In this document: piece after piece, positions 3,160 to 35,496 of the stretch
Position numbering within the stretch: the first letter of the stretch is position 1
How the letters are laid out: the number at the start of each line of letters is the position of its first letter
Virus record (IMG/VR): IMGVR_UViG_3300040736_000114
Location: 1-36,640 of that record
DNA: 36,640 nt
Reading direction: 5' to 3' (one strand)
From: a virus
Lineage: Duplodnaviria > Caudoviricetes
The notes under the pieces: model-generated
Seen by the model: the letters and a program-made list of their open reading frames with translations, nothing else
What the model was told of the DNA's origin: nothing
Database searches by the model: none
Position numbers and translations under genes: made by a program

Positions 3160-3468
3160 ATGAGTGAAGATGTTCGGCTGTGTGGATACATCGGGTGCAG
3201 GAAGCCACTGGTGAGGAAGCCTGGAGAATCGGAAGGGAAATTCAAAAAGCGTGAGCATTGCGACAAGGTATGTTGTGGGTTGCAAAAAGGTGTACGGAGC
3301 CGTGCCGAACGGGATGAGTTGTCCAGGAAGGGCAAGAAGAAAAAGACGGCGAAGCCGGTGAAGTGGCGGCCCGTGCCTCCAGCGGTGGGAAGTCCGCCTG
3401 TTGCTGCGGTTGCAGAGGTGAACCAGGAGTTGTTGAGAGCAAGGATGTATCGCGGAGCTTTATTATGA
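3160..3468 (+). CDS. Small basic Cys-rich (zinc-binding) phage protein
   Basis: CGYIGC...HCDKVC, lysine-rich; G-rich SD. Confidence 0.65.
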   Translation: MSEDVRLCGYIGCRKPLVRKPGESEGKFKKREHCDKVCCGLQKGVRSRAERDELSRKGKKKKTAKPVKWRPVPPAVGSPPVAAVAEVNQELLRARMYRGALL

Positions 3469-3474
3469 GAAAGT

Positions 3475-3517
3475 TGTTCAAAAAAATGTTGAACATTGCG
3501 AGTCGTTGAGGTATGGG
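3475..3517 (+). promoter_or_regulatory. Late promoter 1 with palindromic operator
   Basis: TGTTCAA-aaaaatg-TTGAACA at 3475-3495; the right arm TTGAAC can act as -35, then 17 bp, then TATGGG at 3512-3517. Confidence 0.55.
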
Positions 3518-3546
3518 TGAAGGTAATAAGGTTTCGGAGGTTGGGA

Positions 3547-3714
3547 GTGTCGGCGAATGTGGTTATGCGCAGTAGGGACCCTGATTGGAAGGAAAAGTTG
3601 ATTGCGAACCTGCAAAGCCTTGGATTAATGAAATCTGGATTCACTGGTCAATTAATCATTGACTGCAACCAGGGCGGCGTTACGGCGTTTACGATTTCCG
3701 AGAAAATACGATAA
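3547..3714 (+). CDS. Small YezD/DUF2292-like protein
   Basis: GGAGG at 3536-3540 before GTG 3547 (ATG 3565 is an alternative start). Pattern helix, then GFTGQLIIDCNQGGVTAFTISEKIR. Confidence 0.55.
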   Translation: MSANVVMRSRDPDWKEKLIANLQSLGLMKSGFTGQLIIDCNQGGVTAFTISEKIR

Positions 3715-3752
3715 GAAAAGCGGTTAGTCTGTAACCCGAAAGGGAACTATTG

Positions 3753-3801
3753 AACCCGCACCATGTGGCTGTATGACAGCCAAGGTGCGGGTTTTTTGTT
3801 T
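3753..3801 (+). terminator. Intrinsic terminator/attenuator upstream of terS
   Basis: AACCCGCACC (3753-3762) / GGTGCGGGTT (3784-3793) with inner TGGCTG/CAGCCA stem, followed by TTTTGTTT. Confidence 0.8.
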
Positions 3802-3816
3802 CAGGGGAGTTTGATA

Positions 3817-4416
3817 GTGGCTGGAGTGGATGGACAGACAAGCGTACCAGGGCAAACGGTTCTGCCGGGCATGGCGGAAGACTTGGGGTACGACTCTATT
3901 AAGCTCAAACCATGGGAAGAGCGGTTCTGCTGGAAGTATGTCGAACTGGGGGTTGCTACTCAAGCGTACCAAGCCGTGAAGCCGAAGTCTACCTACGGAA
4001 CAGCGCGCTCGGAGTCGGCGAAACTCCTAGCAAAACCTAGCATAAAAGCCCGGATTGCCGAGGTCCAGGAGGAGATAGGCAGGGAGGCCAGGGCTCTGGT
4101 GATGGGGTATCACCGGACGGTCATGACTACGGATCGGATAGATTTGCTCAGCAAGGTGAAGAACTCTACGTCGTTGGATGATTTGGATGAGGACGCAAGG
4201 GCGATCCTAGAGTTCGAGCAGGTTTCGTCGAAGGATGGTGTCCGGACTCTGTTGAAGGTGCCGACTCGGCATCAGTCAGCGGTGGAGCTGGCCCGCATTA
4301 CCGGGATGCACAAGGATAAGATGGAACTGACGGGCAAGGATGGCGGGCCTCTGGAGCATGAGCACAAATACGACCTGACCGACGAGATGCTGGCGAAGAT
4401 AGCGGTAGGGGGATGA
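3817..4416 (+). CDS. terS: Terminase small subunit
   Basis: EERFCWKYV...ATQAYQA...ARSESAKLLAKPSIKARI HTH; C-terminal ELTGKDGGPL; directly upstream of TerL. Confidence 0.9.
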   Translation: MAGVDGQTSVPGQTVLPGMAEDLGYDSIKLKPWEERFCWKYVELGVATQAYQAVKPKSTYGTARSESAKLLAKPSIKARIAEVQEEIGREARALVMGYHRTVMTTDRIDLLSKVKNSTSLDDLDEDARAILEFEQVSSKDGVRTLLKVPTRHQSAVELARITGMHKDKMELTGKDGGPLEHEHKYDLTDEMLAKIAVGG

Positions 4417-5945
4417 TGATTACCCAGCAAGAGGCCGCCCGTGAGTTGCTGCGCCGGCGGCGGGCACGGAACCACCTGGTTGATTTTTCCCAGGCGATTG
4501 AGATTCCAGGGGCTCCGGTGTCTGATGACCCTGATGAATGGTTGTTCAAGCCCGTGGAAACGGCGGTTGCCCTCCATCACAAGATTATGATGGAGGCGCT
4601 GAATGAAGTGGCGGAGGGTCGTCTGAAGCGGTTGATGATGATGCTCCCTCCCGGTTCGGCCAAGAGTTCGTACACGTCGGTGGTCTTCCCGTCCTACTTT
4701 CTCGGGAAGTTCGAGGGGACGAAGATAATCCTGGCGTCATACGGCTCGGACCTGGCCAAGCGTATGGGACGACGGGCCAGGCAGATTATCCGTTCTCAGC
4801 AGTACCATCCGATTTTCGATTGCGGGTTGTGCTCAGAGACGAGCGCGGCCGACGAATGGGCGCTGACCAACGGCAGCGAGTATATGTCCTGCGGCGTGCT
4901 GGGAGCGATTACCGGATCCCGCTGTCAGGGCCTGATTGTCGATGACCCGTTCAAGGGTAGACAGGACGCGGATTCGAAGGTAATCCGGGACCGCACGTTC
5001 AATGCGTATCAGGATGATTTGCTGACTCGCCTGATACCTGGCGGATGGCAGGTGATTATCACTACCCGCTGGCATGAGGACGATCTGGCGGGTCGGATTC
5101 TTCCGAGCGACTGGATGGGGGAATCAGGGGATATCGTTTGCCGCGACGGAGAGACGTGGCGGGTTATCTGCATCCAGGCGCAATGCGAGCGCAGTGATGA
5201 CCCGGTGGGCCGGCAGATAGGGGAATATCTCTGGCCGGGATGGTTCAGCGAACAGCATTTCGCGCAGTTCAAAAGGGTCCCGAGAACCTGGAACGCTCTC
5301 TATCAACAGATACCGGCAGCCGACAGCGGCAGCTACTTCCTGGCTGACAATTGCCAGTGGTACGAGGAGAGACCGAAGCACCTGCGGATTTACGGGGCCT
5401 CGGACTTCGCGGTTACGGCGGACGGCGGGGACCACACGGAGCACGGGGTGTTCGGAGTCGACCCGAACGATGACCTCTATATCCTGGACTGGTGGTTCGG
5501 CCAGACGCAATCCGATGTCTGGATTGAAGAGGAGTTGGACCTCATCAAGCGGCACAAGCCGTTGTCCTGGTACGGAGAGTCGGGAGTTATCAGGCGCAGC
5601 GTTGAACCGTTCCTTTTGAAACGCAGCCGGGAGCGGAAAATCTACTGCGATTTTCAGTGGCTCCCGTCGATTACCGACAAGCCGACCAGGGCGAGGGCGT
5701 TTCAATCACGATGGGCGATGCGCAAGGTTTTTCTGCCGGTCCATGTGGAGTGGGCTCCGCGGTTGTTGCGCCAGCTCACCAGGTTCCCGGCCGGCGCTGA
5801 AGATGACGGTGTTGATGTTTGCAGCCTTATCGGCCGGGCGCTGGATGACATTGTTGGGGCCAGTGTGCCGGAGGAACCGAAAGAGGATCACAAGGATTAC
5901 GGCGACGATGGTGATGACTTCGAGGACGATTGGAAGACAGCGTAG
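4413..5945 (+). CDS. terL: Terminase large subunit
   Basis: Walker A-like PPGSAKS, IVDDP, TRWHEDDL, WNALYQQ.P, nuclease motifs SDFA and FPAGAEDDGVD. Confidence 0.95.
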   Translation: MMITQQEAARELLRRRRARNHLVDFSQAIEIPGAPVSDDPDEWLFKPVETAVALHHKIMMEALNEVAEGRLKRLMMMLPPGSAKSSYTSVVFPSYFLGKFEGTKIILASYGSDLAKRMGRRARQIIRSQQYHPIFDCGLCSETSAADEWALTNGSEYMSCGVLGAITGSRCQGLIVDDPFKGRQDADSKVIRDRTFNAYQDDLLTRLIPGGWQVIITTRWHEDDLAGRILPSDWMGESGDIVCRDGETWRVICIQAQCERSDDPVGRQIGEYLWPGWFSEQHFAQFKRVPRTWNALYQQIPAADSGSYFLADNCQWYEERPKHLRIYGASDFAVTADGGDHTEHGVFGVDPNDDLYILDWWFGQTQSDVWIEEELDLIKRHKPLSWYGESGVIRRSVEPFLLKRSRERKIYCDFQWLPSITDKPTRARAFQSRWAMRKVFLPVHVEWAPRLLRQLTRFPAGAEDDGVDVCSLIGRALDDIVGASVPEEPKEDHKDYGDDGDDFEDDWKTA

Positions 5946-20856: not shown

Positions 20857-20894
20857 TTCACTTGCACATAAACCGTTCAATATAATATTGAACA
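20857..20894 (+). promoter_or_regulatory. Promoter 2 with palindromic operator (ejection genes)
   Basis: TTCACT, 18 bp, TATAAT (20881-20886); the -10 lies inside GTTCAA-tataata-TTGAAC (20875-20893). Confidence 0.7.
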
Positions 20895-22257: not shown

Positions 22258-25200
22258 ATGGGAGTGTATGATTACGAAGTTCCTGATTTCGTGAATGTGG
22301 ACGTGGACGCGATCCTGAAGGATTTCCGTTCAAAACCCATTACCCCCTACGTCCCTCATCCCGAACCGGTTGCCGAAGAGAGCGAATTCACCAAGGGCAT
22401 GAAACGCGGCATGGAGGGCTTGAAAAGCGCCGGGTATGGCGCCGCCGGTCTCGTCGGCTCCGGTCTCGGAATAGACTCCGTGCGCGACTGGGGATACCAG
22501 GGTTTCCTGGAGCATGAGGAAGAGGCGTCAAAACATGCGGGACGAGTCCAGAACATCGAGGACATCAAGAGCATCGGCGACGTGGGAGACTGGGCCGCCG
22601 GTACGTTCGGAAGTCTGGTGCCGTCCATCGGTGAGGCGGCGGTGACCTCGGCCGCCGGCGCGATTGCAGGTTCCGCCATAGGCCCGGAGGGGACCATCGC
22701 GGGTGGTATCACCGGTTTGGTCGGCAAACAGGCGGCCAAATCCATGGTTCGCAAGTTGGCCAGAACATATGTCAAGGATGGGATGGAACGCCAGGTTGCC
22801 AAAGCGGCGGCGAAAGAGGCGGTCGAATCACTCCCGGCCAAGGCGCTGATGCGCAATCTCGGCACCAAGGCAGGCATCGTCGCCGGAACGGCGCCCGTCG
22901 AGGCGGGGGGCATGTGGGGCGAAGGGATGCAGCAGGGGAAAGATAATCCCTATTCCGCCGCGGTATTCGGTACGCTCTCCGGCCTGTCGGAACTGGTCGG
23001 CGGCGAGGCGGAACTTATCGACATATTCACCAACCCTGCCCGTCAGGCGGTGAAGGGAAATATCGTAAAGCGAATCGGCGTGGAATTGAGCAAAACCATA
23101 CCGCAGGAAGCGGCGCAGGAAGCCACACAGGAAACGTTAGCTATCATCAACCGCAAAGTGGTGGACCCTTCGTACGAGATGTTCGGGGATGACGCCCGGA
23201 GCCGTGTGCTCAACTCGGCGGCCGCCGGAGCACTCGGAGGCGTGGCCTTCGGTGGAGTCGGCGGAGTGATGAGCGGAAGGAGCGAAGGGCGAGGAGCAGG
23301 GAATGAGGAAGAGACACCCAGCCCCCAGCCCCCAGCCACTGAAGTTGACCCATGGAAAGAGGCAGAAGAACCACCGCACCCGGTTACCGCGGCAGAAGCC
23401 GAAGAACAGCCGGTCATGCTGGAGGTGCCGAAGGGGCCGTTGACACGCGCAGTAGAGACAGGTACCGGGACCGTCCCGAATATCGGAGAAACTATACCGT
23501 CTATCACGCCGACGCAGACCACAGATGAACTGGTGCTGGATGAGGCTCGCGACTGGGCGAAGCAGATGGTCGGTTCGGGCCGGACGGATCTGATGCGCCA
23601 GCATGGCGAGCCGTCCAGAGTGTACGACCAGAGAATCCTGGAGTCGTACCAGAAGAAGGATGAGCGTTCAACGTCATCCAGCCCCAAATACGCCAATGTT
23701 GTCTTGGTAAATCCTGAAACCGGCGCACAAGAAACAGTCAAGCCGGAAGAGGTGGCGGACAGGCTCAAGAGCGGCTGGCGGACTCCGAACCAAGAAGAAT
23801 CACCCGTCACTCATCACTCGTCACCTGTCACTGATTTACATTCCGTCACCGACGCAGACCGGAACATGCTGCGCATGGCACAGTTGCGCGCTGATTATTG
23901 GGAGCGCGGTTCCCTGGATAACGGGCGGAGCAACAAGACGCAGCTCTTCCCGTGGCTGAATTCGTGGGGCAAGATCACACCGGCGGAAGTGGGCAAGGCG
24001 ATCGGCAATTTCCTGGAAGGTAGAAAGCTGGGGGATGTTCAGCAGCGACTAGTGGAAGCCGCGCTTGAATACGAGCGGGAAAACCCTGTGCCGTTTGCGG
24101 AAGAGCAAAAAACAACGAAGGAGGAATCTCAGGATGAAAAGGTTCAAGAAGAAGTGCGGGGGCAAGGGCCGGGGGAAATAGCGCCGGCGGCTACGAATGC
24201 TTTGCGGGAAAGGGCGCAACGGTACGCGGAAAAAGCGGGGTATGGTGATGTCTCGGACTGGAGCGATAAGGAAGTCGCGAGTTTTGTAAAAACCTACGAT
24301 GCGTGGAGATTCGCGGAGAGACAAAAGCAGCATCTCACGCAAAAGATAAGCCGGACCAAAGAGCCGAAGGCCCTGGAACGGCTGCAAAAAACCCTGGGTC
24401 AGGTCCGCAAAAGACAGGCTGAACTGGGGCTGAAAGGGGCCGCACGTGGCGAAGAAACCGGAAATCAAGGAACCGCTGGAAAAGCCTCGGCCGGAGCCGA
24501 AACAGTGCCGCCGGTGCAAAAACTGGATGGACAGGAAAGCGACGGAATGCCCGTGGTGCAGCCTGCCGATGAAGTGAAGGCTGTTCCACCCATCACTCAT
24601 CACCCATCACTCATCACTGATACTGAAAATAAAGGGGGGATGCAGGATGATTTGTCCGAAGTGCGGCAAGAAGAGCGCGGGACGGAGGGAGAAGTGCCCG
24701 CAGTGCGGGGAGAAACTGTAGGAAACGAACAAAGGAAGGCCAAGTTTGCGGAAGCCCGCAGGAAGCATATTCTGAGAAAGCTGGCTGAGGCGAAAGAACC
24801 GAAAGAGCGTGAGCGGCTGCAAAAGGCGCTTGCCCGTTTGGAGGCAGAACGTGATTCAAAACAGGGAAAAACCGAGGAAAAAGCCGAAGTAGGAAAGCTG
24901 GGTAAAGATATCCGTAAGCAGAGAGTTGAAGAGTTTAAGAAAAAGTATGGGTATACCGAAGCTGATAACGGAGAGAAACAGGATTCAAGAAAAGCCCCGG
25001 AAACACGCCAGGAGAAGCTGCTCGATACCCTTGAAAAAGCCTACGAGACACAGACAAAGCGGTTGAACAGTATGAATCTGCCCGTGCCTTCCAAGAATGA
25101 TGTGCGGCAGTATATCCAGGACGGCAAAGGCGCGGTAGCGGATGTTACGGCATCAATTCAAGATATCATGGAAGAGATGTCGAGAGCATCCGTTCAAGAG

Positions 25201-28200
25201 TCGGATTCGAGTATCCCTTCCACAACTCCCGCCACCGAAGAGGAGCGGCCTGCCGGGGCCGCTCCGCCCGCCTCCGATGAAATGTCGAAGGCACCAAGTA
25301 TGGTCAGAGATTTTGCCGCAAAGGTATTGAATGGTGAAAACCATCCAAAAAGACTGGTCTTCAAAGTGACAACGGAAACAAAACGCCAAAAAGTTATTAA
25401 CGATACCGGTGTTGATATAGGTGGATCAGTGGAAATGGTTCTTCCCGATTCAATTATCCATGTGAAAAAACGGCACTTGGATATTACTCTCGACGACTGG
25501 GAAAGACTCCCTGAGATAGCGGAAACATTCAACGATTCATACATTGGGCGCGCAATTGGAGATCCCAAAACAAAAAGAATGATTTTCGTCAGAGAAAGCG
25601 ACCCATATCAATATGTATATGTGGCTGAATTTGCAAGTGGAGGCAGGGGAAAAAGGCTTATCGTTAAAACCTATTTCAAAGATACGTCCAAAAATATTGA
25701 AGATTTCCTTGAAAAAAATGCGCAAAAAACAAAAGAGGCTTCTTCTGGTGTCGGGGATCTCACCCAACCTGCTTTACGCCCCCAGAATTCCACCTCTTCT
25801 GTGGATATTGTCCCCAATTCCGATGGTAATGTCAAGGAAAACGAAGGTAAAATAGACGACTTCGGCGAAAAGATAGGCGGAGCGAGGAAGGACACGGCGG
25901 AAAAGGTGTCCTCGCAAACGCGTAAGGCAAAAGACAAAGAAACGGCGCCCGCCTGGAAGAAGCGCTTCATCGTCTCCGAGAGCGTGAAGACACCGGGACA
26001 ATTTAAAATAATCGACACCAGGGAAGGGCGGTACAGCTTCTCATCGGGAGGGCAGCCCTTCACTTCGAAAGAGGAGGCCGAAAACGCCCTACCCGTGTAT
26101 GCCGTGGCGAAGACGCATCATGTGTACCAGAACGCCGACAAAACATGGTCCGTCTGGAAACGGGTGGGAGAACGGAAGCGGCTCAAGGTGGTGGACCGGG
26201 ATTTCCAGAGCCGGGAAGACGCCATGCGTTTCATGGCGAAAAACGCCGTAAGTCTTCTTGAAAACAAGACCAGCTTCGGCGAAGAGATTCTTCCGGTTCC
26301 GGAAATAGCCGTGCGCAAGGGCGAGGAGAGGCGTACCGGCCCGGCGACGCCTGAGATGTTCATGGAGACCTTTACGCCGCGCGGTATCGAGTTTGGCAAT
26401 TGGACCAACCAGGAAGAGCGGCAGCAGGTCATGGACCACGCCTATGATGGGCTCCTCGACCTGGCCGAGGTTCTGGGCGTCCCTCCCAAGGCGCTGATGC
26501 TGAACGGCGAACTGGCTATCGCCTTCGGAGCGCGCGGCCAGGGTCTGTCCGGAGCCAAGGCCCATTACGAGCGCGATTACGGCGTCATCAACCTGACCAA
26601 GATGAAAGGGGCCGGTTCCCTGGCCCATGAATGGTTCCATGCCCTCGACCATTACCTGGGAAGGCTGGACGGCAAGGCTACGTCCGAAAAGGAACAGAAC
26701 AAGCGTGGTGACCAGGTTTACAAGACCAGGGGGACCGGCGACTATCTGAGCCACGGCGCAAGCTACAAATCACAGCTGCGGCAGGAACTCCGGGAGGCGT
26801 ATACCGCCCTTGTCAAAACGATGTACAAAAAGGCGGAGCAGTACGTCGAGGACACCGAGAAGACGGAAAAGTTCGTCGGCGCCGCGCGGGAAAACCTGAA
26901 GGAAACGCTGGACAGGATTCGGACCGACCTTTCCCGCGACCTTTCCAATGAATACACCTGGAGAAAGAGCAAGAAAGGACTTGCTCCGGCATCCGCCGAA
27001 CAGCTTGCCGAGTTCGACAGGCTGGCGTCAATCCTTGTGGAAGGCGGTGACCTGGCAACATCCTTCCGGCAGGATAATCCTACAGCTCCGGCCAACAGCC
27101 GCGCGGCTTTTTCGGGCCGTAACACCAATGAAAGCCTGGAGGGTATCAGCCGCATACTCAAGGCCGTGCGTAACCGCTCCGGGTTCAACGCCGAACGGAC
27201 CGGGACGCTGGACAGGCTCCGCGCGGATATGAACCTGTATGACCAGCGGCTGAAGATGCTGCAAGAAGCGGAAAGCGGTACGGAAAAAACCAAACAGGTA
27301 CCCACATCGTTCGCCATGGAAGCGAAGAAGATGGATCAGGCCCGGTCGGGAGATTATTGGAGCGAACCGCACGAAATGGCGGCCAGGGCCTTCGCCGCCT
27401 ATGTGGAGGACAAGGTAGCGGAAAGGGGTGGGCAGAGCGATTTCCTTGTCTATCATGCCCATGGCGGTATTGTCGTGCCAATGATAGACGGCTTTGTAGC
27501 ACGGCCGTATCCGGAAGGTAAGGAGCGGCAGGCGTTGAATACGGCTTTTGACAAATTCGTCAAGGCCATTCGCACCGAAGAGACCGAAAAAGGCGTAGTG
27601 ATGTTTGCTCTTGCGCCAAATCCAGGAGCGCCGTTCTATTCCAAACTGGAAAAGGTTGTTGAGTCGAAATTCCCCGGAAAGTCTGACACGCGCATGGCCG
27701 CCCAGATGCTCCAGGCGTGGCAGAAGAAAGGAGAGTTTACATCTGACGAGTTGGGGCAGAGCGGACTAAAGGATTTCCTTGCCGGAGAGACGAAAGTTAC
27801 GAAGCAGGATGTGCTTGATTTTCTGAAAGAGCAGCAGACGGAGTTTCAGGATGTGGTGCTGGGGGAGGAATCAAAAGAGCAGTTGTATGAAGGGCCAGAT
27901 TCATGGGGCGATATGCCAGCCATGACTTTGGAGTCGTGGAAAAACGAGATACCGGAAAATGAACAGGAGGCCAAGGCAACCCATTGGTACGATTGGTATA
28001 GAGACGATGCGTACCGTGCCGAGGATATGGGAGAGGACCTTTCATGGAGCGATTACCGTGACGGATTGATTGATGATTTGAAGAAGTCGCAAGAAATTGA
28101 ACAACCTACTCACTTCTCCCGATACACTGAACCCGGCGCGAAAGAAGGAAGTTACCGGGAGATGTTTGTGACGGTGCCAAGTCAAAAACCCGTTAGTGTC

Positions 28201-31200
28201 CAAGGTGAATATAGGCTCAAGTCCATTGGCGATGGGCGATGGGAGTTGACAAAAGGCGGTCAGTTTGTTGGCGAATACCCGTCTAAGGCAGAAGCTGAAT
28301 CCCGCATGGCAAAAGGTTCTGAAAAGACTTTCGGTTGGCAAGATGGTCACTCCCAATACTCCGACATCAAAAATCCCGTAGTCCGTATCCGCTTCAACGA
28401 GCGTGAAAACTCCGGAAAGCGTATTCTTTTCGTCGAAGAGATGCAAGGCCCTTCCGACACCGAACAGAAGAAAATGCCGGAATGGCTACGAAAGCGCATC
28501 TATGATATCGGTGTAAAGCGTATCCTTGCCTATGCCAAGGAGAACGGTTTTGACGGGGTTGCGTGGACAACGGGGGAGATGCAGGCGGCGCGGTATGACT
28601 TGTCGAAACAAATCAGCCGCATTAAGTATGAAAAGTCTTCGACCGGCGTTTCGAATGAGGTCAATGAGGAGTATGTAAAAGACGGCGTATTGCTTGCCTA
28701 TGATCTTGACGGCAAGCAGGTCATCAAGGAGTACATCTCCGATGGCGAGTTACCGAATTATATCGGAAAGGATGCTGCCGAAAAATTGATGAAACTGAAT
28801 CCTGAGCCGGGTCGGACTCTTGGCGGCTTGGGTGGCATTTCAAGAGAACTGTCTGGACTTGATTTGAAAGTAGGCGGCGAGGGCTTGAAGCGTCTTTATG
28901 ATCAGACCATACCCGCCATGTTCGCAAAGTACGGCAAGGAGACGGTGGGGAAAGTAACGTACTTTCATTCCGGGCAAAAGCAATTCGGTGAGGGAAACGC
29001 GCTTACAGCTGCGGAACAGGAAGAATATGACATCCTTGAAGAACTGGAGAGCAATGACCGGCCGATGACGCAAGCGCAACTTGACCGTTTTGGAGAGCTT
29101 GATGATCGTTTAGCAGCTATAAATTATGAACGGCCCGAAATGAAACCGGGGGCAATAACAGTCCCCTTCATCCCCATCACCGAAAAGACAGCCTCTGTTT
29201 ATCCTCTATATTCCGCGGCTACTTCCAGGGCCTCCTCCGGCCTACCGGCCGCCGACATCAGGGCCTCCTTTGAGCCGGTCTATAAGAATATGCCCAAGGC
29301 CCCTCCCTGGCGGGTGGTGCAGACCGCCGCCGAGCTGCCGAAGCGGGCGCTGGATGATGCTGCGCGGCGGGGAATCCCGCAACGCTTCCTGCAAGCGGTT
29401 TACTTAGGGCATGAGGTCGTCTACGTCGCGGACCACTTCAATTCCATTGAGGAGGCGAAGCAGGTCATCCTGGAGGAGGTCGTGGTGCATCACGGCCTGC
29501 GCGGCATCATGGCGCGGGATACCTACGAGAAACACATGCTTCAGGCGGCGCTCTGGTACGCCAACAAGCGCACCGACGAATGGAAGGCCCTGGGCAAAAC
29601 CTACGGACTCGACCTCAAGAGCCGGGCGGGACGCATCGAAGCGGCAGAAGAAATGTTGGGACGGGATGCCCGGACCGGCACGGATTCAACCCTGATGACC
29701 CGCATCATAGCCGCAGTCAAGGAGTTCCTGAGAAGCATCGGTTTTGATTTGGGGTACGGAGAGTCGGAGATCCGGGAGCTGCTGGGCAAGGCCAGGAGAT
29801 TCGTAGAAGGAAAAGAAACTCCCCGCCTTGAGAAAAAGGGCAAGGGGGGGATAGACTACGGCGCCCTTCTCCGTAACCTCCGGGAACGGGGAATCACGGA
29901 TGAGCAGCTTCAGGCCGTCGCGGCCTTTGAGCCGGGAGGGGCAAATTACGCCGTTGCTGAACAGTCACGAAATCGAATGGTGGAGGTTCTGGATGCAGTC
30001 AAGAAAATAGCTGCCGGCAGTGATGAGGAGACATTAAAAGATTTTCGCGGAGATCTGGAGACTCTGGGTGGAACAAACGACGTAACTCTTGTCTGGGGTG
30101 ATTCTAAAAAAGGATTGCGTCATATCGGTGAGAAACGCGGGGCGCAAGTAGTCGCGGACGTATTGACGGCAGTGGCTCATGGTTCAATCGCCAAGCAAGT
30201 AGCTGGCAAGAAAACCGTACACATTGTCTTGGGAAACACTGAGGCAGTTCTTTCGCTGGATGAGCATGGAAAACGAAAGTCCTGGTTGTTGACTGGCTGG
30301 AGAATAGGCGAGTCCGATGCTTTCGGTGGGGTTGGTGCCCATGCCGATGCTACGCAGGCCGGACCTGTCTTTAGTCGTTCCGACCTGGGAGCGGACTCTG
30401 TAAAACAAATTATAGCAAATATGGAGAATATTGAAAAGCTCTTATCAGCAACCAAATTCGCCCTCTCCCGGCTCCAGGACGTAAAAACCCAAATCACCGA
30501 CAAGGGTGTCTCACTGAACACCGCCGAGCGGGAGGTGCTGGAGGCCGACCGCGCGAAGGCGGTTGAAGCCATCGGCGAGACGGTCAAAGACTACGACGAA
30601 CCGGGCCGGTTCCTGTTCCGGGCAATCTACGAATCCGACCAGGACAAGGCCCCCGGAGTGGTGCCATACAATCCTGAGCGCGGGCACTACGCCGCCGGGG
30701 AAAACCTCAAGGGCTCATGGTGGACCACATCCCTTTCCACGGCCCAAGAGATAGCCTGGAGCAAGGCGCGAGGCGGTAAAAAGGTGAAGATTGTTGCCCT
30801 TCCGTTGGATAGGTTGCCAAATGGCAACATATACATCCAAAACACCAACCCGCCGGGAATGGTCTATGACCTGTTTGTGGGCCTGCCGGCGGATGTGCCG
30901 ATGTCGGCCGTGCGGGAAATGCCGATTGACTCCGGTATCCGCTATGCCCTGGCGGACCGCTTCGCCGGGTACGTGGGAGAGATGCAGGGCGGCGCGATCT
31001 GGAAGAAGATTGCGCGGCTGCTGAATCCGTTGGACTGGTCACACGTTTATGGCTGGTTCAAAAACATTACTCCTCAGAATATCCAGAACGGCCTCGCCCG
31101 CGTCTTCCGCGACCCTATCGGGGCGGCGGAGGTGGACGAAGACAAGAAGATTTTCGTGGAGAGGGGCATCCAGCGGGAGAGGAACAAGACAAGCCTTGTG

Positions 31201-34200
31201 CTCCGTCTGTTCGGCTGGTTCGGGCCGAGAGAGAAAATTCCGAACTTCTTCGAGCGGCTCACCAAAACCTTCACCACCTTTCACAACAATGACCTGACAA
31301 CGGCGTGGGGCCGGATAGTCGATGAATTCGGAAAACTGTCACAAGGTGACCGCAAGGGTGTGGACTGGCTCCTGTACCGTGGGGATGTTGACGGCAAGGT
31401 GTACCGGACCTATGACATGGTGAAGAATGACAGGAAGGTGTCCAAGAAACTCCCGTCCGAAGCCGCGTTCAATACCTACCTGAAGGTGAGGACGCATATC
31501 GACACCACAGTCGCCGATACCATCGAGGATATAACCCGCCAGTTCATGGCGGAAAACGGCATGTCCGGAGATGAGATAGAAAAGCACATTTTCAATTACC
31601 GGCAGGGTCTCGCGCGGCACGTCGGCTGGTTGCCGCGCAACCATGGCGAGGGGAATTGGCAGGTCAACATCTATCAGCGCATCACCGGTCTCAAGTGGGA
31701 CATCGGACAGTATCAGGCTGTGAAGCATGTGAAGTATCTGACCAAAAATGGTAAAACCGTAGAGTTTGAAAGGACGATAGATGCGCTGTCCGCCTATCTC
31801 CCCTACTTCCCGAGCCATGATGTTGCCAAGGAAATCAAGACGCTGGCGAAACGCTTCGGCCTTGCCTACGAACAGGAAAACGGTCGGCAGCGCGTCTATG
31901 TGGACAAGGGGGCTCAGAAGAGATTCGGTAAAGCTGTTGAGAAACTGAAGGCGTCCCTGGCCGGAGAAGGTCTGGACCAGGCCAAGCGCGAGGAGATGCA
32001 AAAGAAACTGGAAGAATTGGAAACCGCGCTTACTTTTATCAAAGACCATTCACCGAGTAGACAGATCCAGTTCTTCGTCAAGCAGGCGTCCAAAATAATC
32101 GGGCGTTTGGAGTCAAAGAACCTGATGAGCATCCACCGGGCCAAGGAGAATCTGAAGCAGGCCATCGAGGACAAGGAATCCGCTACGGAAATCAGGAGGC
32201 TCGAAGACGAACTGGAAAAACTGGGTGACGGAAGCATCAAGGTGAAGGTCTATATGCGACTCCAGAGTTCCAGGTCCAAGGCCGACAAGCACATGAAGGC
32301 CGTGCGGGCCGACCTGAGAAAGGCCATCCCGGAGAATTTCCGGGAAAGCGGCATCTACGAAGTAAAGGTCAAGTTCAATGACCGGATATCCGAATCCACC
32401 TACGGAGACATGCAGAACGATTTCGCCATGGAGCAGGCCCAGTTGCAGGCAATCAGCATGGCGTCATCCAAACAGGAGATTACCAAGGAAGAAGCGGCGG
32501 CAATCCGCCACCAGATTATCCAATCGACCGCCGAAGTGCTCATGGCCCGCGGGGCCGGAGCGCACAGGATTCAGCGCGCCGAGTACCTGATAGAAGGCTA
32601 TGACACGGAAAACACCCTCGATGCCTACCAGGATTACATGACCGGCACGGCGGGGATGCTGTCCAAGGCAAAATACGCACACGACCAGTTTGAGAATTTC
32701 CGCTATGCGAAGCCGGAAGTGAAGGCGTGGGCCGAGCAGTACATCAAGGACACCCTGCGCAACATGGGGTATGGCGACATGGTGAGCGGCAACCTGCGCT
32801 CTCTGGCCTCCTTGGCGTATCTCGGGTTCAAGGTCTCATCCATGGTCATCAACGCCACCCAACCGTGGACTCTCGGGGTCGCTCACTTGGGCATGCTCAC
32901 CAAGCGGAGCCCGCTGAAGGCGATTGCCAAGGCGCAAAGGGATATTCTGAGCTGTAAAACAGCGAAGAAAGAGGGAGATATAGGGATCACGAAGTCTGAA
33001 GCGGAAATATTCGCCTCGGAAATATGGAAAGAGCAGGAACAGAAGACTGCTGTGCACGAAATGGCAGGTTCCTCGGAAGGCGCTACCGGCAAGGTGTCCC
33101 GCTTCATGCACACCCTGACCGACAAGGCGCTGTTCGGCTTCCAGGAAGTGGAGATGCTCAACCGAAAGACCGTCATCCTTGCCGCGTACCGCACCTTCAA
33201 GGCGGACGGAATGGAGCATGGCGAGGCGCTGAAAAAGGCCCTGGACGTGAACGGGCAGGTCAACAACGAAATGAGCCGGGCGAACAAGCCGGGAATAGCG
33301 CAGAATCCTGTCGGCAATACCCTGTTCACCCTGCAAAGCTTCACGTGGCGTACCTGGAACTGGGTGTTCAACCGACTCACCAGCGGCAAGAAGGAAGACA
33401 TGATTGCCCTGCTCCGCTACGCCGCCGCCATGGCGATAATCGGCGGAGTAGCCGCCCTGCCGGGCGGGGATGAGCTGGATAAGCTCTATCAGATGCTTTT
33501 CGGAGAGAGCCCGAAGCTGGCGTTCCAGAAATGGACGAAGAAACACGCCCGCGAATACGGCTCCCTGGGCGAGATGGTCAACGGCTTCGCCTGGCACGGA
33601 CTGGCCAGCGCCACCGGCGTCAACATATCCAACGCCATGCGCCTACAGATACCAATTGTTTCCCCGGTACTGTCGGGCGATTCCCTTCCCGAGGCCGCAG
33701 GCGGAGTGTTCACCGGCCTCGCGCAAAAGGGCGCCAGGGCGGTTACGGCGGCAAGCCGGGGGGATATGTACAGGATGATTGAGAATATTTCCCCAGAGGC
33801 CCTGTCCGGAGGCATGCGGGCCTACCGAATGGCCACCAGGGGCGCCACCACCGGAACGGGAAAGGTCATTTTCGACGAGAGCGGAAGGCCAATGAAATAC
33901 GGCGCTGGTGAGGCGGTTACCAGGGCGCTCGGTTTTCAGCCGTCCCGGGTATCCGAACGCAACGACCTGACCAACGTGGAAAAGGGTCTGTCGGTACACT
34001 GGAAAGAAGAACGCGGGGATCTGCTCGCCGAGTTGCGCCTCGCAAAACCGGGGGAGCGCAAAGAGGTGACGCTGAAAATAATGCGCTTCAACCGACGTCT
34101 CCGCGATTCCCAGGCCGCCGGGCTGGTGCCGGTAATCAAGGCGGAAACCATCCGGCGGACTCTGGCCGAAAAGCCGAACAAGCGCAAGGCTGAATGGGAA

Positions 34201-34221
34201 CAAAATCAGTTGACTACGTAA
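22258..34221 (+). CDS. Large polyvalent (ejected virion) protein, 3987 aa
   Basis: Gly/Ala-rich membrane-like N-terminus; PBECR-like RNase (~25300-25730); KIDDFGEKIGGARKD (LPD5-like, 25849); zincin HEWFH (26626); DYWSEPHEMAARAF (LPD1-like, 27352); LFVEEMQ domain; EEVVVHHGLRG metallopeptidase-like (29473); barnase/colicin E5-like RNase (~29976-30305); ART-like (~30604-30900); PLxRFG-like WLPRNHG (31627); helical C-terminal domain. Confidence 0.85.
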   Translation: MGVYDYEVPDFVNVDVDAILKDFRSKPITPYVPHPEPVAEESEFTKGMKRGMEGLKSAGYGAAGLVGSGLGIDSVRDWGYQGFLEHEEEASKHAGRVQNIEDIKSIGDVGDWAAGTFGSLVPSIGEAAVTSAAGAIAGSAIGPEGTIAGGITGLVGKQAAKSMVRKLARTYVKDGMERQVAKAAAKEAVESLPAKALMRNLGTKAGIVAGTAPVEAGGMWGEGMQQGKDNPYSAAVFGTLSGLSELVGGEAELIDIFTNPARQAVKGNIVKRIGVELSKTIPQEAAQEATQETLAIINRKVVDPSYEMFGDDARSRVLNSAAAGALGGVAFGGVGGVMSGRSEGRGAGNEEETPSPQPPATEVDPWKEAEEPPHPVTAAEAEEQPVMLEVPKGPLTRAVETGTGTVPNIGETIPSITPTQTTDELVLDEARDWAKQMVGSGRTDLMRQHGEPSRVYDQRILESYQKKDERSTSSSPKYANVVLVNPETGAQETVKPEEVADRLKSGWRTPNQEESPVTHHSSPVTDLHSVTDADRNMLRMAQLRADYWERGSLDNGRSNKTQLFPWLNSWGKITPAEVGKAIGNFLEGRKLGDVQQRLVEAALEYERENPVPFAEEQKTTKEESQDEKVQEEVRGQGPGEIAPAATNALRERAQRYAEKAGYGDVSDWSDKEVASFVKTYDAWRFAERQKQHLTQKISRTKEPKALERLQKTLGQVRKRQAELGLKGAARGEETGNQGTAGKASAGAETVPPVQKLDGQESDGMPVVQPADEVKAVPPITHHPSLITDTENKGGMQDDLSEVRQEERGTEGEVPAVRGETVGNEQRKAKFAEARRKHILRKLAEAKEPKERERLQKALARLEAERDSKQGKTEEKAEVGKLGKDIRKQRVEEFKKKYGYTEADNGEKQDSRKAPETRQEKLLDTLEKAYETQTKRLNSMNLPVPSKNDVRQYIQDGKGAVADVTASIQDIMEEMSRASVQESDSSIPSTTPATEEERPAGAAPPASDEMSKAPSMVRDFAAKVLNGENHPKRLVFKVTTETKRQKVINDTGVDIGGSVEMVLPDSIIHVKKRHLDITLDDWERLPEIAETFNDSYIGRAIGDPKTKRMIFVRESDPYQYVYVAEFASGGRGKRLIVKTYFKDTSKNIEDFLEKNAQKTKEASSGVGDLTQPALRPQNSTSSVDIVPNSDGNVKENEGKIDDFGEKIGGARKDTAEKVSSQTRKAKDKETAPAWKKRFIVSESVKTPGQFKIIDTREGRYSFSSGGQPFTSKEEAENALPVYAVAKTHHVYQNADKTWSVWKRVGERKRLKVVDRDFQSREDAMRFMAKNAVSLLENKTSFGEEILPVPEIAVRKGEERRTGPATPEMFMETFTPRGIEFGNWTNQEERQQVMDHAYDGLLDLAEVLGVPPKALMLNGELAIAFGARGQGLSGAKAHYERDYGVINLTKMKGAGSLAHEWFHALDHYLGRLDGKATSEKEQNKRGDQVYKTRGTGDYLSHGASYKSQLRQELREAYTALVKTMYKKAEQYVEDTEKTEKFVGAARENLKETLDRIRTDLSRDLSNEYTWRKSKKGLAPASAEQLAEFDRLASILVEGGDLATSFRQDNPTAPANSRAAFSGRNTNESLEGISRILKAVRNRSGFNAERTGTLDRLRADMNLYDQRLKMLQEAESGTEKTKQVPTSFAMEAKKMDQARSGDYWSEPHEMAARAFAAYVEDKVAERGGQSDFLVYHAHGGIVVPMIDGFVARPYPEGKERQALNTAFDKFVKAIRTEETEKGVVMFALAPNPGAPFYSKLEKVVESKFPGKSDTRMAAQMLQAWQKKGEFTSDELGQSGLKDFLAGETKVTKQDVLDFLKEQQTEFQDVVLGEESKEQLYEGPDSWGDMPAMTLESWKNEIPENEQEAKATHWYDWYRDDAYRAEDMGEDLSWSDYRDGLIDDLKKSQEIEQPTHFSRYTEPGAKEGSYREMFVTVPSQKPVSVQGEYRLKSIGDGRWELTKGGQFVGEYPSKAEAESRMAKGSEKTFGWQDGHSQYSDIKNPVVRIRFNERENSGKRILFVEEMQGPSDTEQKKMPEWLRKRIYDIGVKRILAYAKENGFDGVAWTTGEMQAARYDLSKQISRIKYEKSSTGVSNEVNEEYVKDGVLLAYDLDGKQVIKEYISDGELPNYIGKDAAEKLMKLNPEPGRTLGGLGGISRELSGLDLKVGGEGLKRLYDQTIPAMFAKYGKETVGKVTYFHSGQKQFGEGNALTAAEQEEYDILEELESNDRPMTQAQLDRFGELDDRLAAINYERPEMKPGAITVPFIPITEKTASVYPLYSAATSRASSGLPAADIRASFEPVYKNMPKAPPWRVVQTAAELPKRALDDAARRGIPQRFLQAVYLGHEVVYVADHFNSIEEAKQVILEEVVVHHGLRGIMARDTYEKHMLQAALWYANKRTDEWKALGKTYGLDLKSRAGRIEAAEEMLGRDARTGTDSTLMTRIIAAVKEFLRSIGFDLGYGESEIRELLGKARRFVEGKETPRLEKKGKGGIDYGALLRNLRERGITDEQLQAVAAFEPGGANYAVAEQSRNRMVEVLDAVKKIAAGSDEETLKDFRGDLETLGGTNDVTLVWGDSKKGLRHIGEKRGAQVVADVLTAVAHGSIAKQVAGKKTVHIVLGNTEAVLSLDEHGKRKSWLLTGWRIGESDAFGGVGAHADATQAGPVFSRSDLGADSVKQIIANMENIEKLLSATKFALSRLQDVKTQITDKGVSLNTAEREVLEADRAKAVEAIGETVKDYDEPGRFLFRAIYESDQDKAPGVVPYNPERGHYAAGENLKGSWWTTSLSTAQEIAWSKARGGKKVKIVALPLDRLPNGNIYIQNTNPPGMVYDLFVGLPADVPMSAVREMPIDSGIRYALADRFAGYVGEMQGGAIWKKIARLLNPLDWSHVYGWFKNITPQNIQNGLARVFRDPIGAAEVDEDKKIFVERGIQRERNKTSLVLRLFGWFGPREKIPNFFERLTKTFTTFHNNDLTTAWGRIVDEFGKLSQGDRKGVDWLLYRGDVDGKVYRTYDMVKNDRKVSKKLPSEAAFNTYLKVRTHIDTTVADTIEDITRQFMAENGMSGDEIEKHIFNYRQGLARHVGWLPRNHGEGNWQVNIYQRITGLKWDIGQYQAVKHVKYLTKNGKTVEFERTIDALSAYLPYFPSHDVAKEIKTLAKRFGLAYEQENGRQRVYVDKGAQKRFGKAVEKLKASLAGEGLDQAKREEMQKKLEELETALTFIKDHSPSRQIQFFVKQASKIIGRLESKNLMSIHRAKENLKQAIEDKESATEIRRLEDELEKLGDGSIKVKVYMRLQSSRSKADKHMKAVRADLRKAIPENFRESGIYEVKVKFNDRISESTYGDMQNDFAMEQAQLQAISMASSKQEITKEEAAAIRHQIIQSTAEVLMARGAGAHRIQRAEYLIEGYDTENTLDAYQDYMTGTAGMLSKAKYAHDQFENFRYAKPEVKAWAEQYIKDTLRNMGYGDMVSGNLRSLASLAYLGFKVSSMVINATQPWTLGVAHLGMLTKRSPLKAIAKAQRDILSCKTAKKEGDIGITKSEAEIFASEIWKEQEQKTAVHEMAGSSEGATGKVSRFMHTLTDKALFGFQEVEMLNRKTVILAAYRTFKADGMEHGEALKKALDVNGQVNNEMSRANKPGIAQNPVGNTLFTLQSFTWRTWNWVFNRLTSGKKEDMIALLRYAAAMAIIGGVAALPGGDELDKLYQMLFGESPKLAFQKWTKKHAREYGSLGEMVNGFAWHGLASATGVNISNAMRLQIPIVSPVLSGDSLPEAAGGVFTGLAQKGARAVTAASRGDMYRMIENISPEALSGGMRAYRMATRGATTGTGKVIFDESGRPMKYGAGEAVTRALGFQPSRVSERNDLTNVEKGLSVHWKEERGDLLAELRLAKPGERKEVTLKIMRFNRRLRDSQAAGLVPVIKAETIRRTLAEKPNKRKAEWEQNQLTT
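23800..23834. repeat. Heptamer array TCACnnn x5
   Basis: TCACCCG TCACTCA TCACTCG TCACCTG TCACTGA. Confidence 0.8.
24586..24620. repeat. Second heptamer array TCACnnn x5
   Basis: CCACCCA TCACTCA TCACCCA TCACTCA TCACTGA. Confidence 0.8.
24647..24721 (+). CDS. Nested 24-aa zinc-ribbon micro-ORF (+1 frame of the giant gene)
   Basis: MICPKCGKKSAGRREKCPQCGEKL* preceded by AAAGGGGGGA. Confidence 0.4.
   Translation: MICPKCGKKSAGRREKCPQCGEKL
25724..25801 (-). ncRNA. Predicted antisense sRNA 1 after the PBECR-like domain
   Basis: Minus-strand TTGACA (25835-25830), 17 bp, GACAAT (25812-25807); nested stems 25733-38/25793-98 and 25743-48/25782-87; ends in a minus-strand U-tract. Confidence 0.5.
30309..30402 (-). 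ncRNA. Predicted antisense sRNA 2 after the barnase/colicin E5-like domain
   Basis: Minus-strand TTTTCA (30437-30432), 17 bp, extended -10 TGCTATAAT (30417-30409); closing stem GAGTCCG/CGGACTC (30310-16/30392-98) enclosing two hairpins. Confidence 0.55.
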
Positions 34222-34256
34222 GAAGAATGGGGTACTGTTCAACAAGTTATTGAACA
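34210..34256 (+). promoter_or_regulatory. Lysis promoter with palindromic operator
   Basis: TTGACT (34210-15), 17 bp, TACTGT (34233-38); TGTTCAA-caagtta-TTGAACA at 34236-34256. Confidence 0.7.
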
Positions 34257-34304
34257 ATCAAAGCGACACTGGGTAAGTTTCAACCCGGATGGATGCGGGA
34301 ACTG

Positions 34305-34347
34305 AAAGCCCCGGTGGGACCGACAACGGTTCTATCGGGGCTTTTTT
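34305..34347 (+). terminator. Intrinsic terminator/attenuator upstream of the lysis genes
   Basis: AAAGCCCCGGTGGGACCG-acaa-CGGTTCTATCGGGGCTTT followed by TTT. Confidence 0.85.
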
Positions 34348-34364
34348 GGTATGGAGGTGCAAAG

Positions 34365-34706
34365 GTGGCGGCGACACCGGATCCGCTGTACACGAAATTA
34401 TTGGAGCAGGGCATCATTTTGTTGTCCGCGACTGTTATCACTGTAGGAGGAGCACTGTGCGGCATCCTGATTTACATCTACCAACAAGGACAAAAGGGAT
34501 TTTCAGAGGCATTGGAAAGCCTTGAAAATCGAATCGGTGAAATAGCGAAAAGCCTGTCAAACCTTGCTGAAAAGCTCTTTGAACGGACTGATGACCATGA
34601 AGCCCGCTTGTCTGCCATGGAGGCCGTATGCAAGGACCGACATAGCGGTGGACAATACCCGTATCGCAGGAAATCGGATTCACCTCACGGAGTTGAGGAG
34701 CCATGA
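34365..34706 (+). CDS. Holin-like protein (single TM plus coiled coil)
   Basis: GGAGGT SD before GTG 34365; one TM then a coiled coil; first gene of the lysis module. Confidence 0.55.
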   Translation: MAATPDPLYTKLLEQGIILLSATVITVGGALCGILIYIYQQGQKGFSEALESLENRIGEIAKSLSNLAEKLFERTDDHEARLSAMEAVCKDRHSGGQYPYRRKSDSPHGVEEP

Positions 34707-34720
34707 AGGAGGGAAGAAAG

Positions 34721-35059
34721 ATGAAAACTGTCGTATTTGGAGTAATGTTGGCGGTGATGTGTTTGCTGTCCGTAGGATGCGCCACAACCACAACCAAGGA
34801 AATGGTGCAGGCGGAACTCACGCTGATGCAGACGAAAATCGCAGCAGCGTCAACCACGTCCGCGCTCTGCCAACAGGGCATAATGTCTCAGCAGGATTGC
34901 GCCACGGCGCTGGCCGCCTATCAATTGTCACAGGTGTCGAGCAATACGGCCCTTTCGCTGTTGCTCGCCAATTGCACGGACGCGGATCTTTCCGCTCAAA
35001 TCCAGGCGGCCATAGCGGCTGGATTCCCTGGTTTATCTTTTGTTAAGGGGACGCAGTAA
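34721..35059 (+). CDS. Lipoprotein (possible spanin component)
   Basis: Signal peptide with lipobox-like LSVG-C; alternative ATG at 34703. Confidence 0.65.
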   Translation: MKTVVFGVMLAVMCLLSVGCATTTTKEMVQAELTLMQTKIAAASTTSALCQQGIMSQQDCATALAAYQLSQVSSNTALSLLLANCTDADLSAQIQAAIAAGFPGLSFVKGTQ

Positions 35060-35496
35060 TGGATAGGCTGGAGGGTTTAGACCCCGGATTCAGGGCAACG
35101 GTGGAGCGGATAGTCTCGGAACTGGAGAAAATCACCGGGAGAAAATGGCTGGTCACGTCCGGGTATCGTAGTATCGCGGAGCAGGATAAACTCTACGCTC
35201 AGGGGCGGACAGCAAAAGGACCTGTAGTGACCAACGCCAGGGGAGGTTCTTCGGCTCATAACTGGCGACTGGCGGTCGATATCTGGCCGCTTCAATCGGA
35301 CGGTTCGGTTGACTGGAAGGCACAGAAGCCAGTTTTCAAGCCCCTTGCAGAGCTCGCCAGGGCGGCAGGATTAACACCTGGATACGATTTCAAAACCCTG
35401 TCAGACTGTAGTCACATAGAGGACCCGGATTGGCGGAGCGTTCGGGCAGATTGGGCGAAAAAGAAGCTTTTGGAGAAAGGGTCAGGCATTGGGTGA
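35059..35496 (+). CDS. Endolysin, M15 family L-Ala-D-Glu peptidase (CwlK/Ply500-like)
   Basis: GYRS..EQ..LYAQGRT...VTNARGGSSAHN..LAVD...D.SHIE. Confidence 0.9.
   Translation: MDRLEGLDPGFRATVERIVSELEKITGRKWLVTSGYRSIAEQDKLYAQGRTAKGPVVTNARGGSSAHNWRLAVDIWPLQSDGSVDWKAQKPVFKPLAELARAAGLTPGYDFKTLSDCSHIEDPDWRSVRADWAKKKLLEKGSGIG

Follow-up and report, generated by a model that had tools for sequence, protein, structure and literature searches.

The window, by which we mean the whole stretch of DNA analysed here, is a 36.6-kb virus record from a temperate podovirus-like phage. Its gene order runs from replication genes through terS, terL, a P22-like portal, capsid and tail genes to very large late proteins and an M15 endolysin, and family searches of the window ORFs confirmed the identities of terS, terL, portal, capsid and M15 endolysin. 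The window is a partial genome, since the same 55-aa protein that concerns us here was found on a 72-kb contig. A tyrosine-recombinase C-terminal fragment opens the record (1-288), and the immunity region lies outside the window. Further downstream, a 3987-aa ORF (22258-34221) gave only unnamed PHROG matches, confined to its first half; its product is probably an injected or tail-associated protein. A 102-aa cysteine-rich basic ORF (3160-3468), located between a DnaC-like loader and the first copy of a DNA palindrome, is kept in close relatives; it gave no family match, and its Atlas leads were zinc-finger-like only.

Downstream of this ORF, a 55-aa ORF (3547-3714, + strand) with a GTG start and a ribosome-binding site (GGAGGT, 3536-3541) is followed by an RNA motif, an intrinsic terminator (3752-3801, + strand) and terS (3817-4416, + strand; PF03592, E 1e-11), behind which terL, portal, capsid and tail genes extend as far as 20851. 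A preliminary description of the locus had listed promoter, ORF, motif, strong terminator and terS in this order, and all of these elements were confirmed except the promoter: the consensus scan lists none upstream of the small ORF, where a weak TTGAAC-17-TATGGG is visible. The same description had located the motif, GGTTAGT-ctgt-AACCCG-aaa-GGGAACT, at 3722-3748 and a repeat of it at 34272-34303. Both were matched, while 0 of 100 shuffles gave a match, a control that is generous because the motif pattern was derived from these same two copies. A covariance model made without the second copy gave the lysis copy, at 16.2 bits and E 0.012, as its best further match within the window. This second copy precedes another terminator (34306-34348, + strand; from fold z and a hairpin and U-run scan), two membrane-type ORFs, for which a holin/spanin role may be proposed, and the M15 peptidase endolysin (34365-35496, + strand; ORF list and family searches). 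We refer to the two arrangements of hairpin and terminator as gates 1 and 2. In line with the earlier reading, the scanned window ORFs, a part of the ORFs of this partial genome, gave no match to a Q-, N- or RinA-like regulator.

Over 45 codons, the small ORF differs from its counterparts in four relatives at 20-25 third positions versus 5-8 second positions, a protein-like pattern. The protein is only mildly basic, with seven scattered K+R against five D+E. Its monomer model (pLDDT 84) consists of one helix (residues 14-24) and a beta-hairpin (strands 34-41 and 44-52). The homodimer was predicted with an ipSAE of 0.73, compared to 0.00 for the best of three controls, and the mark applied is one that 20 of 30 known homodimers attain, as does 1 of 23 single chains. 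The homodimer runs agreed in at least 98% of contacts with a pLDDT of at least 76, and in the model the contacts involve the first strand and the helices of both copies. The model supports the pairing of two copies of the protein. No match to the protein was found in Pfam, NCBIfam, PHROG or PDB; Foldseek of the monomer model against PDB and BFVD gave none at E<=0.001, and the best VIA fold match was GnsA, with a Z of 2.6. Single-sequence searches were nearly blank, and relatives of the protein came through a DNA pattern scan, which revealed two loci where the motif is immediately preceded by a homologous ORF. The profile search detected 33 proteins at E<=0.01, and the homologs found measure 44-81 aa.

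The RNA motif forms part of a hairpin of roughly 40 nt, whose three helices are separated by two conserved internal loops, in the order P1, UUAG|RC, P2, A|ARC and P3. Hairpin 1 (3720-3759, + strand) is composed of P1 (3720-3723 with 3756-3759), P2 (3728-3733 with 3748-3753) and P3 (3735-3737 with 3742-3744, with a GAAA loop); its internal loops are UUAG|AC between P1 and P2, and A|AAC between P2 and P3. In hairpin 2 (34269-34314, + strand), P1 pairs 34269-34273 with 34310-34314, P2 34278-34282 with 34303-34307 and P3 34284-34287 with 34296-34299, and the corresponding loops are UAAG|GC and A|AAC. Since the UAAG loop of the window's lysis hairpin matches a loop found with a variant of the protein, this hairpin may bind less well or be of foreign origin. 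The top loop varies from a tetraloop up to 8-10 nt. Over 19 distinct sequences, 89% of the cells are paired and 39 double changes are observed, which none of 500 shuffles reached, and the fold beats all slid registers. RNAalifold recovers P1 and P3 unaided; it does not predict P2, whose cells are 81% paired. The outer pair of P1, which uses a terminator base, is found in six pair types and shows 6 double changes, and a C-G pair of P1 is replaced by G-C in the lysis copy; since the three inner P1 pairs are almost invariant, the support for P1 comes largely from this one position and the swap in the lysis copy. An alternative AGU:ARCU pairing was rejected, there being no compensatory change in that helix.

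Both terminators had been described as strong, and their fold z values of -6.3 and -7.5 bear this out. At about -30 kcal/mol each, they are the two strongest of six hairpin and U-run sites on the + strand; the next one (-24.5) is intragenic. In both gates P1 takes the first stem bases of the terminator's 5' arm (CCCGC, 3755-3759, in gate 1, where the U-tract is at 3792-3797), and hairpin and terminator therefore cannot coexist. Relative to a state in which the GGU strand is forced onto the terminator base, the terminator state is favoured by 8.1 and 10.2 kcal/mol, so the default of both gates is off. In equilibrium folds of growing transcripts, P1 remains near 0.9 as long as the 3' arm of the terminator has yet to be transcribed, and drops to 0 thereafter, in agreement with the logic described for RAT hairpins (PMC3105407). 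The switch had previously been described as two mutually exclusive pairings, GGT(T) with AACC and CCC with GGG. This proposal was not supported: the choice is instead between hairpin and terminator, via the bottom helix P1. The GGUU:AACC pairing is compatible in 74 of 76 cells and shows 0 compensatory changes, and is for the latter reason an off-state partner at most; in folding it appears early, then again after the terminator forms, and it is complete at site 2.

Co-occurrence of gene and motif across related phages had been suggested as a check, and the motif was indeed found in relatives that carry the gene. All 10 viral loci selected by protein, of which about 8 are distinct, have hairpin and terminator at most 14 nt from the stop codon, with terS behind the gate in six and scaffold/capsid genes in four. 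Among 133 pattern-selected loci there were 28 covariance-model matches, 25 of them at 40 bits or more. Every one of these strong matches shares sequence with a terminator, and for 24 of them the gene lies no more than 330 nt upstream. These counts include near-duplicates and training sequences (the sequences are related, most of the loci scored had also served to train the model, and some DNA patterns were designed from protein-selected loci). The record of the single strong match without a gene holds only 42 nt of upstream DNA, and the three weaker matches had neither terminator overlap nor gene. Thirteen DNA-pattern loci outside the protein profile scored 27-71 bits against it. What the sequence itself shows is that hairpin and terminator overlap, that the helices covary, that the loops are conserved and that gene and hairpin are linked. 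Our preferred reading, to which we assign a probability of about 0.6, is that the 55-aa protein acts as a stand-alone microprotein antiterminator, whose binding to the hairpin would allow transcription to continue into the packaging and lysis genes.

In 17 of the 24 loci where gene and hairpin are linked, the distance between stop codon and motif is at most 20 nt, and in L139 the stop codon falls inside the motif. Such proximity could point to ribosome-coupled attenuation, in which a ribosome ending the small ORF would cover the 5' strand of the hairpin and thereby set the choice between hairpin and terminator, the peptide itself mattering little. We consider this quite unlikely, since the lysis copy of the window follows a promoter-like site in a leader without an ORF, other hairpin copies are located 50-324 nt from the gene, and the protein retains its fold and conserved polar residues at 27-65% identity.

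A profile search over 401 genomes of one bacterial phylum revealed nine places in eight genomes: two with the window-type hairpin, six with a variant hairpin over a terminator (assigned by eye), and one without a hairpin within the 166 nt examined. When 151 genomes of the class of G001 were scanned with the covariance model R1, a strong match was obtained in G001 only; the blanks weigh little, since R1 misses the variant hairpins of the phages G550 and G551. Gene, hairpin and terminator also occur together in a non-phage context (L046, L135, L141, L144, L146 (L201:1321-1400)). In L046, L135 and L146 this unit is located upstream of a large DUF11 surface protein, and in G001 upstream of a c-di-GMP-I-GGC riboswitch, forming a tandem switch. 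More distant homologs (L154, L155, L157, L158, L159, L161) are followed by variant hairpins over terminators and by a DUF2213 phage gene, a PEP-CTERM-like protein or a phosphatase. It is possible that these variant hairpins represent a bridge to the classic DUF2292 hairpins.

The complete phage G007 has one copy of the gene and three gates with hairpin and terminator: upstream of scaffold/capsid, downstream of capsid, and upstream of tail fibre/endolysin. These are its cleanest late-region terminators, and the arrangement fits a factor acting in trans, at each site. Directly 3' of the gene, G006 and G007 have a degenerate hairpin without a terminator; at L023:182-216 and L026:2272-2308, a hairpin of this kind right behind the gene is followed by the full gate one small ORF further on. 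A hairpin in this position could be taken to mean that the dimer binds RNA for another outcome, such as stabilisation or autoregulation of the short mRNA, or favouring of termination. This seems very unlikely to us, given that 25 of 25 strong copies overlap the terminator arm in an antiterminator geometry and that the unaided state is already a terminated one. No second hairpin copy was found in G410, G411 or G004, and the lysis copy is absent from G003, where the same first lysis gene as in the window follows an ungated leader.

Among eight TerL-selected loci, six have gene, hairpin and terminator. The records of the other two, G552 and G553, lack the gene, and no terminator is found in the 1 kb that precedes terS; the joint absence may reflect one module loss, since the palindrome is missing too. 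In G550 and G551, whose TerL is 92-96% identical to that of the window, the protein keeps its helix and differs in the beta-hairpin half. Both RNA loops of their hairpin are altered as well, with UAAG and an extra U beside P3, and the G551 lysis hairpin also has the extra U. In these two phages the DNA palindrome is unchanged and the 102-aa ORF is retained. As evidence of matched recognition this joint change of protein and RNA is suggestive only, because it concerns a single lineage. It also bears on the notion that the hairpin is a real antiterminator with another opener, which could be a host protein, a small ligand, the product of the 102-aa ORF or the RNA alone acting on the polymerase, the small gene being a passenger or a target. 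A ligand could fit the two conserved internal loops, chromosomal copies in Desulfuromonadales-type contigs stand in tandem with a c-di-GMP riboswitch, and the 102-aa ORF, without a family, occupies the usual position of a late regulator. We nevertheless regard another opener as unlikely: 24 of 25 strong hairpin matches come with the gene, across unrelated phage layouts and chromosomes, and the 102-aa ORF is retained in G550 and G551 while the small protein and the RNA loops change jointly.

A second layer is formed by the palindromic DNA site TGTTCA-N9-TGAACA, present in three copies in the window, each at a late leader, against a mean of 0.04 and a maximum of 1 in 100 simulations. Copy 1 (3475-3495; pattern scan) is located 51 bp before the small gene, and the same site is found in relatives. 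Copy 2 (20874-20894) lies before the 455-aa and 3987-aa genes and overlaps a TATAAT, with no hairpin or terminator downstream. It had been proposed that late genes can be reached by read-through only; the packaging and lysis genes do lie behind gates, but the block from 20888 has its own hairpin-less leader. Copy 3 (34236-34256) overlaps the -10 hexamer of the lysis leader, where a promoter-like TTGACT-17-TACTGT (34210-34238, + strand) with 8/12 consensus, under the scan cut-off, can be read. This leader layout is common to G003, G410, G411 and G551, and the palindrome occurs in 2 to 5 copies in G003, G410, G411, G550 and G551, often over the -10 hexamer; one G003 copy is near CI-like genes. 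In G551, two copies with an identical spacer (2091-2111 and 4877-4897), 2.8 kb apart, flank an insert before the lysis leader. A host regulon such as LexA was rejected as the origin of the site, which occurs in 4 of 201 genomes of G001's phylum, once in each, a phylum that may not be that of the host. The palindrome is likely a phage-wide operator of the phage repressor.

A two-fold dimer suits a palindrome, and the copy 51 bp before the gene could suggest that the small protein is a DNA-binding regulator of this site, unrelated to RNA. G004, by contrast, has gene and hairpin and lacks the palindrome, and at up to two mismatches the site was absent from L062-L065, L023, L026 and L135-L148, save one weak match in L142. 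The palindrome thus does not accompany the gene into distant phages, and it is unchanged in G550 and G551 where the protein has changed, which makes this role highly improbable.

The closest parallel to the proposed antitermination gate is the BglG/SacY CAT-RAT system. RAT hairpins have two internal loops, partially overlap a more stable terminator and exclude it, and the CAT domain of BglG, SacY and LicT is a small dimeric RNA binder that acts locally (PMC3105407). The window hairpin likewise overlaps and excludes a more stable terminator and has two asymmetric internal loops (UUAG|RC and A|ARC), and a small dimer, predicted by modelling, is the putative binder, with local action proposed. 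In contrast to BglG and SacY, the 55-aa protein has no CAT sequence match in Pfam, NCBIfam or PDB sequences and no PRD domains, its ORF ending at 55 aa and the homologs found, in a search that covered short forms, at 44-81 aa. Here the candidate is a stand-alone protein of 45-60 aa with a predicted helix and beta-hairpin, which would act on late genes of phages where BglG, SacY and LicT act on sugar operons. The CAT fold was not among the Foldseek and VIA-align matches of the monomer model, a type of search that cannot exclude this fold.

The gene had been called YezD/DUF2292-like, which stands as regards shape, but not as regards the Pfam model PF10055: its gathering score was reached by 0 of 7 A1 members and 0 of 23 further homologs, the window protein likewise falling below it. 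The likeness to the DUF2292/YezD/OscA family (PF10055) concerns size, a helix followed by a beta-hairpin ending in EK.R, and, in the model and alignments, the pattern G..x.I...G.I..I...EK.R; a hairpin, often followed by a terminator, is also found downstream of classic DUF2292 genes. When the family (A2) was compared with seven DUF2292 proteins by hhalign, a weak match was obtained (probability 38.9%, E 3e-4, 47 columns), and the nearest named Atlas cluster, a lead only, was DUF2292, on 27% of members with a score of 0.76. Classic genes differ in being followed by a hairpin of the GCUGACCRG-AAA-CYGGAGG type (7 of 9 loci, by eye), to which model R1 gives no match.

Dedicated factors and terminators guarding phage or mobile-element genes are also a feature of lambdoid N/nut and Q, P. 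aeruginosa AlpA, Caulobacter GTA antitermination and conAn. These factors modify the polymerase, mostly processively, with Q and AlpA loading at DNA elements; here, each terminator has its own overlapping RNA hairpin. Lambdoid N uses an arginine-rich motif and the fixed boxB loop of nut. The window protein has no arginine-rich motif, its seven K+R being scattered, and the top loop of its hairpin varies freely. No window match was found in Rfam at the gathering threshold, the sub-threshold ones lying on the terminator only. Among small hairpins linked to phages or delta-proteobacteria, c4-2 (RF02944) scored 19.6 bits against a cut-off of 41, with a match confined to the terminator, and Moco-II (RF01713) and gut-2 (RF02990) were not listed in the scan. 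No description of the system was found in the literature searched on DUF2292, YezD, oscA/sulfur starvation, PF10055 and COG5583; the motif was not found in the parts of PMC10690425 that were covered, and the RNA may be contained in supplementary material of PMC10690425 or PMC5737381. The gate would work like CAT-RAT antitermination, yet it is no CAT-RAT member, nor is it filed under DUF2292.

We propose the following sequence of events. In the lysogen, the phage repressor would silence the leaders by binding to the palindromes. Induction would lift this repression, giving short terminated transcripts that encode the 55-aa protein. In the nascent RNA, the hairpin would be dominant until the terminator's 3' arm emerges. 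The accumulated protein dimer would bind the two internal loops of the nascent hairpin and hold it shut, so that the terminator is blocked and RNA polymerase reads through. Each gate would be opened locally above a protein threshold, and the gate would be a delay or threshold device that works site by site and not processively. The core of the preliminary description, an antitermination gate made of a small protein, an RNA motif and a terminator, thus agrees with the motif being kept in gene-bearing relatives; its details concerning the pairing, the feedback, the DUF2292 assignment and the gating of all late genes did not hold or were weak. Positive feedback is not to be expected, as the small gene precedes the gate and is transcribed without read-through.

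To our knowledge, the way in which late genes are switched on is largely an open question for those temperate phages that lack Q, RinA and a late sigma factor. If our reading is true, a 55-residue protein and a 40-nt hairpin would constitute a very small antitermination system, of which G550 and G551 would provide a natural specificity variant. It is tempting to speculate, at a little less than even odds, that it is one branch of a widespread group, the DUF2292/YezD/OscA superfamily, whose members would be minimal stand-alone antiterminators that bind RNA, with a subtype-specific hairpin code read via the beta-hairpin, which phages may use in place of Q for late-gene timing and bacteria for gating surface-protein and other operons. 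The finding would also point to a function for DUF2292, which is an uncharacterised family, and the gate may represent a compact, possibly orthogonal gene switch.
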